A stretch of 64,000 nucleotides of DNA from an uncultured Pseudomonadales bacterium (GTDB lineage Bacteria > Patescibacteriota > Microgenomatia > UBA1400 > PJMF01): contig CAZIBP010000001.1 of the NCBI GenBank assembly GCA_964537665.1, positions 11,972 through 75,971 on the forward strand, read 5' to 3'. The stretch's first letter is position 1. Every line of letters starts with the position of its first letter. Shown in pieces: positions 36,884 to 56,306 of this stretch. The notes under the pieces were generated by a model that was not told where the DNA came from, did no database searches, and was given only the letters and a program-made list of their open reading frames with translations. The position numbers were made by a program, and so were the translations under genes.

Positions 36884-39091
36884 TTATTTTGGTGGTTGAT
36901 AGTCGTTTATACTATAAATCCCGTGTTGATCTGGTTTAACTTCTTTTGAAGTTGCTAATTTTTCTTTTTGATCTGTTTCTTCAAAAACTGTTTTGATTTT
37001 ATAATCATTATCTCTATTATCCAATTCTTGGTCTGGATTAAAAGTAAGACGATCGGTTTTTAGGGCAGTTTCTGCATTTTGTTTAGCATTCTTAAGTGGA
37101 TCTTGATTGAGATCAATTTCTTTATTTTCCCATCTGGAAGCTAATTGTTCAGTATCTTTTTTGGTATTTTTAAAGTCGGTGTTATTAATTAATCGTTGTT
37201 TGCGCAGCTCTCTACTTTTTTTATATTCTTCATAGCTGGCTGTTCTTGGCTTTGAGGCAGCATTTAAAGCTTGATTAATTTCTTTATCATCTTTTTTACG
37301 TAGGATCTCTTCTGGATTAGTTGTAATGACACTGTGTTCTTGGGGTGAAGCAATCACTCTTAAGGCGACATGATTCTGACCAGCGAAGAAAATTCCTTCT
37401 CCCACATCTGAGGAGACTAATAATTGACGTTCACCCTCAGATAAATAAAAAGTTTGAGTGAGAATTGGCACTGAAGCAGTCGACTGCTTCATTAAAAATT
37501 GAATGGAAGCATTAGACACAATTGCTTTGCCATAGTCATTGTGGAGAAAGTCTTCTACGTCTTGAGTAATTGTGGTGATACCAAGATAATATTTGCGCGC
37601 TCTTTTAACCATTGAGTAAACAAAGGCAGCACTATCAGGATGCATCATAAAATACCAAGCCTCATCAATTACCAAGATACGTCTTTTAAGATTTTTCTTA
37701 ACTCTTGTCCAAATAAAATCCAAGATGACATACATGGCAATTGGGCGAAGTGATTCTTCCATTTCCTTGACCGAAAAAACAGTAAATTGAGAATGAATGT
37801 CAATATTGGAAGCTTGATCAAAAATTCCGCGAAAAGAGCCAGTGATAAATTTTTCTAAACGAGCAGCAATATCATCACTTTCATCTTGTTCCATACCAAT
37901 TAGAGCCTTATAGAGGTCTTCCATTAATGGTGGAGTATTTTTTTGGGTAGCTGGATCTGGAGTAATTCCTTTAGCTTTATAGGCAGCAATAATTGAACGA
38001 TCAAGTAAAGCTTCTTGTTGTGGGGTCATTTCACCCAGCATAACCTTGAGAAGTCCATGAATAGAGAGTATTTTTTGTCCCAATTCGTTTTCTCCCTCTT
38101 CATAAATGTTGGACAAATCAAAGGGATTAATTTTAGCCTCTGAGCCAAAAGTAAAATTAATGTATTCTCCACCAACCATTTTGCATAATTCTTCATACTC
38201 ATGTTCTGGGTCAAGTACAATGACTTCAGCATCAAACATCAGCTGTCGCAGAACTTCTAGCTTAACAGTATATGATTTGCCAGCACCAGATTTGGCAAAA
38301 ATTACCATATTGGCGTTTTCCATTTTGAAGCGATCAAAGATAACTAGAGAGTCATTATGTTCGTTGATGCCATAAACAATGCCGGTTTCCATAGTTAATT
38401 CGGAAGAGGTGAAAGGAAAAGTGGTAGCTAGGGAAGTGGTGTCCATATTTCTAGTCACAGAAAGACGATCGACACCCATTGGTAAGGTGGTTTTAAAACC
38501 CTCATCCATTTGTAGGGCAGATTTTTTGGAAACAATCATTAAGGCGCCTAAAGTGCTTTGGATGCTTTTGGTGATTTTATCTAACATTTCCTTGCTATCA
38601 GCTCGAACCGTCACATATAAGCCAAATTGAAAAAATCTTTCAGAACCGGCAGCTAACTGCTCTCGCATCGTTCTTGCGTCACTTAATTTGATTTCTGTAT
38701 TAATGTTGCTAATTTTTCCAGATCTAATATCGGAAGTAATTTCAGCTTCCATTTCTGTAATTTTGCGCTTTAGATTATCGAGAATATCGCCGGTATCTGA
38801 TGGAAAAACAAACATCGAAATATTGGCTTGTTGAGGGTAGTTGATGAGTGGTGAAAGCCAGTTGGCTGGGACAGCACGAGGATAGCCAGCAATAAATAAA
38901 GTGCGAGTGTAGGTGGAGTTAATTTTTTGGTAAGTGAAATCGACCTCAATTGCTTCTGGAGCAATAATATCTTGAATCGTTACTAAACCACGAGAAAATT
39001 CGCTTAGTTTCTCTTGAGTATATTGTTCAACATTGATTTTATTTTGATCAGTTGAAGTGATGGTTTTTTTCTTAGCAAAAAGATTAAGCAT
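36884..39091 (-). CDS. VirB4/TrbE/PrgJ-like type IV secretion ATPase
   Basis: Walker A VIFAKSGAGKSYTV, Walker B RRILVIDEAWYFM. 735 aa with the domain order of VirB4-family ATPases. Confidence 0.7.
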   Translation of the reverse strand: MLNLFAKKKTITSTDQNKINVEQYTQEKLSEFSRGLVTIQDIIAPEAIEVDFTYQKINSTYTRTLFIAGYPRAVPANWLSPLINYPQQANISMFVFPSDTGDILDNLKRKITEMEAEITSDIRSGKISNINTEIKLSDARTMREQLAAGSERFFQFGLYVTVRADSKEMLDKITKSIQSTLGALMIVSKKSALQMDEGFKTTLPMGVDRLSVTRNMDTTSLATTFPFTSSELTMETGIVYGINEHNDSLVIFDRFKMENANMVIFAKSGAGKSYTVKLEVLRQLMFDAEVIVLDPEHEYEELCKMVGGEYINFTFGSEAKINPFDLSNIYEEGENELGQKILSIHGLLKVMLGEMTPQQEALLDRSIIAAYKAKGITPDPATQKNTPPLMEDLYKALIGMEQDESDDIAARLEKFITGSFRGIFDQASNIDIHSQFTVFSVKEMEESLRPIAMYVILDFIWTRVKKNLKRRILVIDEAWYFMMHPDSAAFVYSMVKRARKYYLGITTITQDVEDFLHNDYGKAIVSNASIQFLMKQSTASVPILTQTFYLSEGERQLLVSSDVGEGIFFAGQNHVALRVIASPQEHSVITTNPEEILRKKDDKEINQALNAASKPRTASYEEYKKSRELRKQRLINNTDFKNTKKDTEQLASRWENKEIDLNQDPLKNAKQNAETALKTDRLTFNPDQELDNRDNDYKIKTVFEETDQKEKLATSKEVKPDQHGIYSINDYQPPK

Positions 39092-39092
39092 A

Positions 39093-54705: not shown

Positions 54706-55437
54706 CTAGGAAAGGATGCGAATTCCAAAAATTAACTCAAGTAATTGAGCAATCCAATAAGCAGCAAAAAGAATGATAAAACCAATAATTGCGCTAGTCA
54801 CCCTTTGTTTTCCTTCTTCCAAGCCTTTAGAGCTACTAGCTCCAAGTAGCATTTGGAAACCACCCAACAAGAGAACGACAAAAAGAATAATTCCAGCTAT
54901 GGGGAAAATGAAACTCTTAAGAGCTTTGGAAATAATTCCTCCCGGTGTGCTCAAATCACCTCCACTACTACTCCCAGACAATGGATTGAGTTTGTTGAGA
55001 GTTGCTCCAGAAGCACCAATGTTATTGACATCAACGTCAGTGGCGCTGCAACTGCCATTTAATAACCAACCACAACAAGTTTGGCCGCCACCAATGTCGT
55101 GGATACCGCTGCCTTCACCACAAACGCACTCTTTACTTCCGGTAGCATAAGTTTGTCCACAGGAGGCATTAATTTCGCTTTCTGGAGCACTTAAGCATTG
55201 ACCAGCCCAATCGCCTTCTTTAACAAAACCACAACAAACACCGCGATTAACCCCATTTAATTGCCAATAGGCGGTCCAATCCGTTCCAGGACAATTGCAA
55301 GTTACTCCCTCTGGAACTGTGGCGTTGCGTAAACTTTGTCCACAAGTGTGTTCAGCGGCTTGAACTTTGCTTGTGGCAAAAATAGCGACCAAAACAGCTT
55401 GCAAAATAAAAGTTTTAAAAAAATTTTTGTTTTTCAT
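54706..55437 (-). CDS. Cys-rich secreted domain fused to a C-terminal TrbC/VirB2-like pilin module (candidate minor/tip pilin)
   Basis: Signal peptide, ~150-aa Cys-rich ectodomain, then LLGGFQMLLGASSSKGLEEGKQRVTSAIIGFIILFAAYWIAQLLELI, matching the TM-loop-TM core of the 20302..23393 pilin paralogs. Confidence 0.55.
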   Translation of the reverse strand: MKNKNFFKTFILQAVLVAIFATSKVQAAEHTCGQSLRNATVPEGVTCNCPGTDWTAYWQLNGVNRGVCCGFVKEGDWAGQCLSAPESEINASCGQTYATGSKECVCGEGSGIHDIGGGQTCCGWLLNGSCSATDVDVNNIGASGATLNKLNPLSGSSSGGDLSTPGGIISKALKSFIFPIAGIILFVVLLLGGFQMLLGASSSKGLEEGKQRVTSAIIGFIILFAAYWIAQLLELIFGIRILS

Positions 55438-56306
55438 TCGCCAAATCCTGGTATATGTAAAATAGAAACGCCAATAAATTGTAAAATAGTGACCGAAAAA
55501 ATGACAAAAATTAAACCAATAATAGCAGAAGTAATAATTTCTTTGGCCTCTTTGGTTTTGTTGGGATCACCTTGAGAAACTGACAGCATAAAAGAACCAG
55601 CCAAAATCATGATCAAAACCACACCACCACCAACTGACAAACCGATGGTAATAACTGTCTGAATAATGCTTTCTGGATCGCTGGGAATACAGCCAACGGC
55701 TGTCCAAATACCTTCACCAGTAAAGCAACTCATGCAAGCTTGGTATTGAGGCTTACTTTGATCAATTTGAGCACAGAGTTCATAAGTTGATGATTCGCTT
55801 GTTCCCAAATCTTCACTATTACATTGTTCGGCACTGCAAGAGGCTTGGACAGGCTGAGAAGATGGAGTATTAAGCTCATAGGTTTTGACCATTGATTGGT
55901 AAGATAGTTGTAGTGAATAGGTACACTGTGAAGCAACGTAAGATTTGGGAATAGTAAAACTCAAGCTCTGATTGGTGACTACAGGATCCATCGGTCCACC
56001 AGCAGAGACATAATAATCTATACAGCCACCGCCTTTGCCAACCCACTTAGCACTGATTGGAGTTCCGTCTGGCAGGGGTGAGCCGTCGCTCAAAGTTAGT
56101 CCATTAAGATTAATTTGCACATCTTGACCAGCTACTGCGCAGCCAGTAAAAAACCCACATTTCTGACCATTAATGTCTTGATAAATTTGCTGATCAGCCG
56201 AATTGATGGAATAAATAACTGCTTGAACGGGTTTGGCACTGGTTGGAAAAACCGTGCCAAAGACGAGAAGAGCTAGAATCAGTTTTTTGATCTTTTTCAC
56301 TGACAT
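55434..56306 (-). CDS. Secreted Cys-containing domain fused to a C-terminal TrbC/VirB2-like pilin module (candidate minor/tip pilin)
   Basis: Signal peptide, ~200-aa ectodomain, then GGGVVLIMILAGSFMLSVSQGDPNKTKEAKEIITSAIIGLIFVIFSVTILQFIG. 4-bp overlap with the previous gene. Confidence 0.55.
   Translation of the reverse strand: MSVKKIKKLILALLVFGTVFPTSAKPVQAVIYSINSADQQIYQDINGQKCGFFTGCAVAGQDVQINLNGLTLSDGSPLPDGTPISAKWVGKGGGCIDYYVSAGGPMDPVVTNQSLSFTIPKSYVASQCTYSLQLSYQSMVKTYELNTPSSQPVQASCSAEQCNSEDLGTSESSTYELCAQIDQSKPQYQACMSCFTGEGIWTAVGCIPSDPESIIQTVITIGLSVGGGVVLIMILAGSFMLSVSQGDPNKTKEAKEIITSAIIGLIFVIFSVTILQFIGVSILHIPGFGE

Follow-up and report, generated by a model that had tools for sequence, protein, structure and literature searches.

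A dnaA-adjacent type IV secretion system gene cluster, probably chromosomal and no longer mobile, in a Microgenomates-type Patescibacteria genome

The stretch of DNA analyzed here (64 kb of contig CAZIBP010000001.1 of an uncultured bacterium, referred to below as the window) carries, at 36884..56306 and next to dnaA, a block of eleven open reading frames (ORFs) that resembles the gene clusters for type IV secretion systems (T4SSs) of monoderm bacteria. The Pfam profiles were scanned against every ORF of at least 100 amino acids (aa) in the window, and the NCBIfam profiles against the cluster proteins and the unassigned ORFs. Relatives were collected by scanning the VirB4 sequence against one genome per GTDB species, which yielded 262 relatives, and 80 loci were kept; the gene order across these 80 loci was read by tblastn with the window proteins. 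The kept relatives, all of them CPR (Patescibacteria) metagenome-assembled genomes, were labelled Pacebacteria, Woesebacteria, Microgenomates or 'Patescibacteria group', besides some evident mislabels, and their VirB4 proteins were 66-89% identical to that of the window. Five further genomes (L082-L086) were reached via homologues of the 557-aa protein of the cluster that are 39-74% identical. All eleven ORFs were present at the positions given in an earlier, sequence-only reading of the block. The ORFs which that reading had listed were right, although the 274-aa gene on the plus strand has to be added to them and a pilin array and a SpoIID-like gene outside the block belong to the set as well. 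The block and its relevant neighbours are composed as follows (TM, transmembrane; Cys, cysteine).

36884..39091, minus strand: VirB4-like ATPase, 735 aa, with NF045971 and Pfam matches and a Walker A motif.
39093..40466, minus strand: TrsD/TraC-like protein, 457 aa, with sub-threshold TrsD and VirB4-model matches and a precomputed PF26593 annotation.
40476..41345, minus strand: PrgI/VirB3-like membrane protein, 289 aa, with PF12666 and two TM segments.
41406..42401, minus strand: bitopic protein, 331 aa, with an N-terminal TM helix and a three-domain YycH/YycI/PepSY-like ectodomain.
42405..46235, minus strand: membrane protein ending in an M23 peptidase, 1276 aa, with PF01551 and a TM segment.
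46298..49126, plus strand: variable-slot gene for a soluble protein, 942-aa ORF (923 aa in public gene calls).
49193..50866, minus strand: VirB6-like polytopic membrane protein, 557 aa, with a signal peptide, TM segments and a fold match.
50964..51788, plus strand: conserved cytoplasmic protein, 274 aa, with weak DHH-like similarity in the N-domain.
51751..54678, minus strand: secreted Cys-rich protein, 975 aa, 21 Cys, with a family-specific N-module (~26-710) and a widespread C-domain (~712-895).
54706..55437, minus strand: pilin-fusion protein, 243 aa, PF18895 at 35.5 bits (cut-off 26.6), TrbC sub-threshold.
55434..56306, minus strand: pilin-fusion protein, 290 aa, PF18895 at 32.0 bits (cut-off 26.6).
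56382..58085, plus strand: SpoIID/LytB-type (lytic-transglycosylase-like) membrane protein, PF08486 at 44 bits and TIGR02669 at 96 bits (cut-off 83.3).
35197..36753, minus strand: dnaA, Bac_DnaA with E 5e-65.
20302..23393, plus strand: array of seven tandem VirB2-like pilin genes, 112-167 aa, five above the PF18895 cut-off and two sub-threshold.
19652..20218, minus strand: ECF sigma-factor gene, adjacent to and divergent from the pilin array.

The 735-aa protein matches NF045971 ('VirB4-like conjugal transfer ATPase, CD1110 family') with 390.9 bits and an E-value of 1e-116, well above the curated cut-off of 325, and is accordingly the VirB4-like ATPase that had been proposed rather than an ATPase of the FtsK/HerA kind. 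It also matches the Pfam families P-loop_TraG, AAA_10 and CagE_TrbE_VirB, possesses the Walker A sequence AKSGAGKS at residue 266 and ends in a low-complexity tail. The second-best VirB4 family is Mbov_0397 (268 bits, below the curated cut-off), and weak similarity was recorded to CedB (48 bits, cut-off 700) and CedD (25 bits). The alignment to NF045971 spans positions 170-733 of the 752 in the profile, the first ~170 positions being missing from the protein. The 457-aa protein encoded by the adjoining gene, which had been counted among three large orphans, matches TrsD (NF041427) over residues 9-128 (E 6e-6, 26 bits, cut-off 200) and positions 102-234 of the Mbov_0397 VirB4 model (E 3e-6), both sub-threshold, and its public record carries the precomputed annotation PF26593, TraC-like. 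Residues ~1-230 resemble the VirB4 N-terminal domain, and the C-terminal half is of low complexity and rich in Pro, Asn, Ser and Thr. Given that the 457-aa protein matches the N-terminal part and that the ATPase aligns only from profile position 170 onwards, the VirB4 N-domain appears, on these sequence comparisons, to be encoded separately as a TrsD-like protein, an arrangement that the survey of Quinonero-Coronel et al. 2025 (PMC12102498) reports for the candidate phyla radiation (CPR). The gene adjoins virB4 in 68 of the 69 assessable loci. The other two of the three orphans, of 942 and 975 aa, are indeed devoid of a Pfam or PDB match.

The membrane components are represented by the 289-aa and the 557-aa proteins. 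The former scores above the cut-off for PrgI (PF12666, 31.9 bits, cut-off 27), has two TM segments and is encoded in all 65 assessable loci. The Ig-like domain that had been ascribed to it corresponds to a C-terminal beta-sandwich-like extension, for which the match (CarboxypepD_reg, 25.2 bits) stays below the cut-off. The 557-aa protein has a signal peptide and around six to seven TM segments, and its predicted structure matches the VirB6 fold, including TrwI/VirB6 of plasmid R388 (PDB 7o3v, 12% identity). The earlier suggestion that it is VirB6-like therefore receives support at the level of the predicted fold, with no sequence profile to accompany it: a family profile of the protein retrieved no VirB6 chain among the PDB sequences, only chance matches, and none of the best 120 of its 502 homologues contains a Pfam domain.

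Several proteins connect to the cell wall. The 1276-aa protein ends, as had been read from the sequence, in a Peptidase_M23 domain (PF01551, 29.6 bits, cut-off 28.7, residues 1154-1239) with an HLH (HxH) motif at residue 1229. A single hydrophobic span is found at around residues 772-790, and by inference the ~770-aa region before it would be cytoplasmic and the region after it outer. The positional homologues in the five further genomes measure 1100-1362 aa, and an M23 match is on record for three of them. The 331-aa protein is bitopic with one N-terminal TM segment, in line with the sequence-only reading, to which structure prediction adds a fold like that of YycH/YycI (PDB 2fgt, 2o3o; ~10% identity). 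It was also considered as a VirB8 of the VirB8, PrgL, TraM or TcpC type, which the predicted fold, YycH/YycI-like and not NTF2-like, does not support. A family profile of this protein gave chance matches only among the PDB sequences, and a literature search on its top structural neighbour, PDB 5coz, yielded nothing. The protein is a candidate scaffold or wall-hydrolase partner. The SpoIID-like gene, which is divergent from the pilin operon and lay outside the block as first delimited, has kept its adjacency to the cluster in all five distant relatives (L082-L086). Because of this conserved adjacency the gene may belong functionally to the system, and its product is a probable accessory wall-remodelling enzyme. 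Matches to SLT or CHAP were absent from the cluster proteins; the wall-enzyme domains are M23 and that of the bordering SpoIID/LytB protein. A VanW/PG_binding_4 protein, encoded at 58328..60148 (minus strand), also borders the cluster.

In all, nine VirB2-type pilin modules are encoded in the window, two of them fused behind Cys-rich ectodomains within the cluster and seven in the array, which lies 13.5 kb away from the cluster on the opposite side of dnaA. Both fusions, which had been recognized as such from the sequence, exceed the PF18895 cut-off. The 243-aa protein consists of a signal peptide, an ectodomain with 12 Cys and a pilin module (residues 166-243), the 290-aa protein of a signal peptide, an ectodomain with 10 Cys and a pilin module (residues 214-278), and homologues of both were found in L082-L084. 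The pilin modules of 54706..56306 (minus strand) show a weak match to NF045849, the profile of Mbov_0395, which is a pilin-like conjugal transfer protein from integrative conjugative elements (ICEs) of Mycoplasma. This is a hint that pilins of the VirB2 kind are not alien to monoderm systems of the mating-pair-formation class MPF-FATA. When the seven array pilins and the two fusion C-termini were aligned, a TM-loop-TM pattern was common to all nine, the other eight being 16-34% identical to the first array pilin. The ECF sigma factor is a possible regulator of the array.

The 975-aa protein has 283 relatives at E <=1e-3 in an exhaustive HMMER search, which revealed its two modules. The C-domain occurs in proteins of 200-2400 aa, and in a sample of 40 (39 relatives and the window protein) its partners were CHAP, Peptidase_C39_2, M14, M23 and T4SS_pilin. 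Within the family Y755, P765, H773, E776, C840, C859 and G959 are invariant and an N-G-x-G-N-x-N-C motif is nearly so. A pilin module stands at the end of 7 of 150 relatives (P0195, P0216, P0238, P0248, P0260, P0262 and P0263), following a C-domain of this type in five of the seven, and the orthologue in L083 (5683..8913) is pilin-tailed as well. It would seem from this that pilin modules anchor ectodomains of various kinds. The search of PDB sequences and Pfam with the whole protein gave no match, and the C-domain family gave chance matches only against the PDB. The idea that the C-domain is SLT/lysozyme-like, which came from the invariant Glu and the YNGxGN motif, could not be confirmed; as a hypothesis only, the domain is putatively wall-active.

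Two genes of the cluster are transcribed opposite to the rest. The 942-aa protein has no TM segment, signal peptide or P-loop and no Pfam, NCBIfam or PDB-sequence match, and only 5 homologues were found among 5.8 billion proteins. Its gene occupies a slot flanked by the M23 and VirB6-like genes. L001, L011 and L083 have a homologue in this slot, L007, L013-15, L020, L082 and L084 have other large ORFs without detected similarity to the 942-aa protein, L032 and L033 have no gene, and some genomes contain an extra gene of 350-620 aa there. A local profile search found no link between the 942-aa protein and the slot proteins of L082 and L084, and a Pfam scan of nine slot proteins came back empty. 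The gene is a variable accessory gene, and its product a candidate cargo or accessory protein. The second gene, for the 274-aa protein, shows a DHH match (E 5e-4, 20.7 bits) below the cut-off of 28.1. Its homologues (36-69% identity) occupy the same position on the opposite strand in L082, L083 and L084, and opposite-strand genes of 275 and 303 aa are found at that position in L085 and L086. Relaxing the Pfam threshold to E <=10 returned nothing useful for the 331-, 457-, 557-, 942- and 274-aa proteins and the C-terminus of the 975-aa protein.

The cluster abuts the chromosomal dnaA, as had been noted: dnaA starts 130 bp past the virB4 stop codon and is followed by dnaN, rnpA, yidC, jag and rnhA. 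Pairs of the DnaA-box-like sequence TTTTCCACA are present in both spacers of dnaA (34890..35196 and 36754..36883), inverted at 35130/35141 and direct at 36830/36842, and the cumulative GC-skew minimum falls at 34-36 kb. Given these box pairs on either side of dnaA and the skew minimum, the replication origin is probably located at ~35 kb, and T4SS-related genes would therefore be found on both sides of oriC. With an origin at dnaA the main T4SS operons would be transcribed towards it. Across the 80 loci the order is fixed: 1276-aa gene, 331-aa gene, PrgI-like gene, 457-aa gene, VirB4, dnaA, dnaN, (rnpA), yidC, jag, rnhA, DUF4012 and L25. Wherever the junction could be assessed (75/75), dnaA comes after virB4 in the same orientation; the number is 75 because all five loci without dnaA end within 417 bp of virB4. 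The entire 19-kb layout, with SpoIID and both opposite-strand genes, recurs in the five further genomes within the limits of each locus. Here the order is SBP and VanW (4/5), the opposite-strand SpoIID gene, one or two pilin genes, a gene for an 870-1076-aa protein, an opposite-strand gene of 275-316 aa, the VirB6-like gene, an opposite-strand gene of 711-1152 aa, a gene for an 1100-1360-aa protein, a gene of 320-350 aa (4/5; 142 aa in L084), a PrgI-like or same-position gene, the TraC-like gene and VirB4.

Genes for mobility were lacking from the window, as the sequence-only reading had stated. The profile scans described above detected no relaxase, VirD4/type IV coupling protein (T4CP), integrase or transposase in the 64 kb, and neither flanking direct repeats nor repeats of the att or oriT type were conspicuous. 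The scans of the cluster for repeats, promoters and terminators stayed at chance level, and a loss of the cluster from close relatives was looked for and not seen. The GC content of the cluster showed no anomaly relative to the window. Since the synteny with dnaA is fixed in all assessable relatives, the cluster is a vertically inherited part of the chromosome and not an integrated element. The segment from dnaA to DUF4012 (28000..36000) has a GC content of 0.28-0.30, against 0.33-0.42 in the remaining window.

Comparison with published systems makes clear to which class the cluster belongs. The CPR T4SSs are treated as established newcomers to the T4SS superfamily in a 2025 review (PMC12857230). 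The survey (PMC12102498) reports VirB4 for 2,417 of 3,035 Patescibacteria genomes, accompanied by adjacent TrsD, PrgI/VirB3 and VirB6; these VirB4 proteins group as one monophyletic clade within MPF-FATA. Homologues of VirB8 were few in the survey, M23 domains occurred in VirB1-like proteins, and VirB2-like pilins were recorded along with divergent pilin arrays of 2-11 genes, above all in Microgenomatia and Saccharimonadia. Relaxases were almost completely absent, and the T4SS was located near dnaA, dnaN and rnpA. The window has in common with these chromosomal systems the MPF-FATA-type VirB4, the adjacent TrsD, PrgI/VirB3 and VirB6, the M23-type wall hydrolase, the VirB2-like pilins and their divergent arrays, the lack of a relaxase near virB4 and the dnaA/dnaN/rnpA site. 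A likewise related case is Southlakia epibionticum, in which the T4SS (SEML1_0006-0019) and its pilins were shown by Wang et al. 2023 (PMC10633639) to be essential for epibiotic growth, and in which recognizable coupling and relaxase proteins are lacking. Because the published system and its context match, the locus is a further example of the dnaA-proximal, relaxase-less Patescibacteria T4SS described in 2023-2025 and its detection from the sequence a correct rediscovery. The statement that the protein combination matches no textbook T4SS layout is out of date, considering that the survey describes such a layout for ~2,400 Patescibacteria genomes.

Some differences should be mentioned as well. 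The survey calls VirB6 'scarce' in Microgenomatia and VirB3 rarely linked to virB4 there, whereas both are present and linked in the window. Those parts of PMC10633639 and PMC12102498 that were at hand make no mention of the Cys-rich pilin fusions, of the 331-aa protein with its YycH-like fold, of either conserved opposite-strand gene or of the 975-aa protein. With the conjugative MPF-FATA systems of Firmicutes (CTn2 CD1110; PrgH/I/J/K/L of pCF10; TrsC/D/E of pGO1) the cluster has in common VirB4, a PrgI-like VirB3, a TrsD-like protein, a VirB6-type polytopic protein and a large membrane-anchored wall hydrolase. Unlike those systems it is chromosomally fixed, with no relaxase, T4CP, oriT or integrase in the window, no VirB8-like (PrgL/TcpC) fold was found in it, and its hydrolase has M23 only instead of SLT and CHAP. 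It also has VirB2-type pilins, which the Gram-positive T4SS classes lack according to PMC12102498. The likeness to Mycoplasma ICEs extends to the Mbov_0397 ATPase, the match of the 457-aa protein to its N-terminal part and the weak Mbov_0395 pilin match, but all these scores are below the curated cut-offs and an ICE backbone is absent here. Relative to TrwI/VirB6 of R388, the 557-aa protein has an extra N-terminal ectodomain and a C-terminal tail of ~140 aa. In Bacillus, YycH and YycI are extracytoplasmic regulators of the WalK kinase; unlike these, the 331-aa protein has no WalK-type kinase nearby and its gene is embedded in the T4SS operon, directly after the M23 gene.

Based on the above, the block is very probably a chromosomal, vertically inherited Patescibacteria (CPR) T4SS of a 'Pacebacteria'/Microgenomates-type genome, derived from MPF-FATA and no longer mobile. 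The earlier view of a chromosomal, non-conjugative machine of monoderm type holds, given the VirB4 match, the VirB6 fold, the missing mobility genes and the synteny with dnaA. In such a machine VirB4, together with its TrsD-like N-domain and PrgI/VirB3, would drive the extraction and assembly of pilins through a VirB3/VirB6 platform, while the M23 and SpoIID-like enzymes, aided by the YycH-like 331-aa protein, would open the cell's own wall. The product may be a short pilus or channel with the Cys-rich ectodomains, and perhaps the 975-aa protein, on its surface or tip. It would contact the host for adhesion and/or the exchange of proteins or nutrients and not for conjugative DNA transfer, and the position beside oriC/dnaA could provide constitutive, dosage-favoured expression. 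Several points weigh against this interpretation. Its functional part derives entirely from homology. The VirB6 assignment was made on a low-confidence model (pLDDT 63, pTM 0.45), and neither Pfam nor NCBIfam gave a TrbL/VirB6 or PrgH match for the 557-aa protein, even at E <=10. A VirB8-like fold was not found among the cluster proteins, the 331-aa ectodomain having no NTF2-like match, and a pattern search of the M23 domain failed to detect HxxxD, the first of its zinc-binding motifs. Moreover, the present view covers only 64 kb, so that a T4CP or relaxase may lie farther away; according to PMC12102498, many CPR genomes encode VirD4 homologues at a distance from virB4.

The machine could, alternatively, serve surface display and pilus assembly only, as an adhesion organelle without substrate transfer. 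The nine pilin modules, two of which carry ectodomains, the repeated use of such modules in relatives to anchor large ectodomains of various kinds at the C-terminus, and the lack of a T4CP in the window are in line with this, but type IV pili already serve CPR bacteria for adhesion (PMC12857230), and the conserved VirB6-like channel subunit and the wall hydrolases fit a conduit equally well, so that we regard a display-only function as conceivable though doubtful. An unlikely variant is that of chiefly an effector translocator, in which the soluble proteins of the variable slot (the 942-aa protein here) are the substrates injected into the host bacterium. A slot inside the cluster that is variably filled with large soluble proteins or empty follows the typical effector/cargo pattern, and the 942-aa protein, with neither signal peptide nor TM segment and with only 5 detectable homologues, conforms to it. 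Nevertheless, a coupling protein to recruit substrates is absent from the window, the slot proteins contain no recognizable toxin or enzyme domain, and a regulator or an unrelated insertion would account for the opposite-strand position just as well. Both variants are sub-variants of the chromosomal, non-mobile T4SS proposed here and do not contradict it. In a more far-reaching reading, the VirB2-type pilin module of this lineage would be a general membrane or pilus anchor that displays interchangeable host-directed ectodomains on a monoderm T4SS filament (Cys-rich, adhesin-like ones and the putatively wall-lytic, previously unclassified C-domain of the 975-aa protein), and the hypervariable slot would encode T4CP-independent substrates. 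Jointly they would make a wall-breaching device for feeding or attachment and not just a conjugation relic; we put this forward as speculation that we consider rather improbable.

A T4SS for DNA uptake, like the competence system ComB of Helicobacter or Ced of Sulfolobales, that imports host DNA as a source of nucleotides is quite improbable. The weak similarity of VirB4 to CedB and CedD, the inability of CPR bacteria to make nucleotides and the occurrence of comF, recG and radA beside the T4SS in class ABY1 (PMC12102498) are in its favour, but the CedB score is far from the cut-off and no Ced or ComB partner or competence gene is present in the window. In addition, deletion of comEC in S. epibionticum abolished transformation and not viability, whereas the T4SS is essential (PMC12857230). 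Finally, an integrated conjugative element, or its decaying remnant, inserted by chance beside dnaA is hardly credible: although the best VirB4 families are ATPases of ICEs and conjugative transposons (CD1110, Mbov_0397), the pilin modules weakly match an ICE protein of Mycoplasma and a gene for tRNA-Arg is found 1.9 kb past the cluster, the window lacks an integrase, relaxase, T4CP and flanking repeats, the GC content is not anomalous, and the idea was rejected on the synteny with dnaA, the cluster and its junction being kept in 75/75 assessable loci with VirB4 proteins of 66-89% identity.

The remainder of the window contains some other features. A perfect 17-nt inverted repeat is found at 58130..58146 and 58237..58253, its second arm within tRNA-Arg(gcg) (58203..58272). 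A mevalonate-pathway set is encoded at 3452..11298, including HMG-CoA reductase, an HMG-CoA-synthase-like protein, thiolase, GHMP kinases, diphosphomevalonate decarboxylase and polyprenyl synthase. At 14183..17140 (minus strand) the gene for an ATP-dependent DNA ligase of the archaeal/eukaryotic type adjoins a Fic/DOC-HTH gene. Neither Pfam nor NCBIfam gave a match for the three ORFs at 218..3446 (plus strand; 491, 388 and 139 aa), among which tRNA-Ile(tat) is located at 2919..2995.

What the locus adds to the published picture is modest and consists of a fold-level VirB6 in this class, a YycH-like protein, pilin-anchored ectodomains, a variable slot and a conserved SpoIID neighbour. The T4SS is thought to be central to the life of ultrasmall CPR bacteria on their hosts and is essential in the one species tested. 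Against this background the locus is a well-resolved Microgenomates-type example that fills gaps of the survey based on hidden Markov models: the YycH-like protein sits where VirB8 would be expected, and the variable slot supplies concrete candidates for the substrates of the system.

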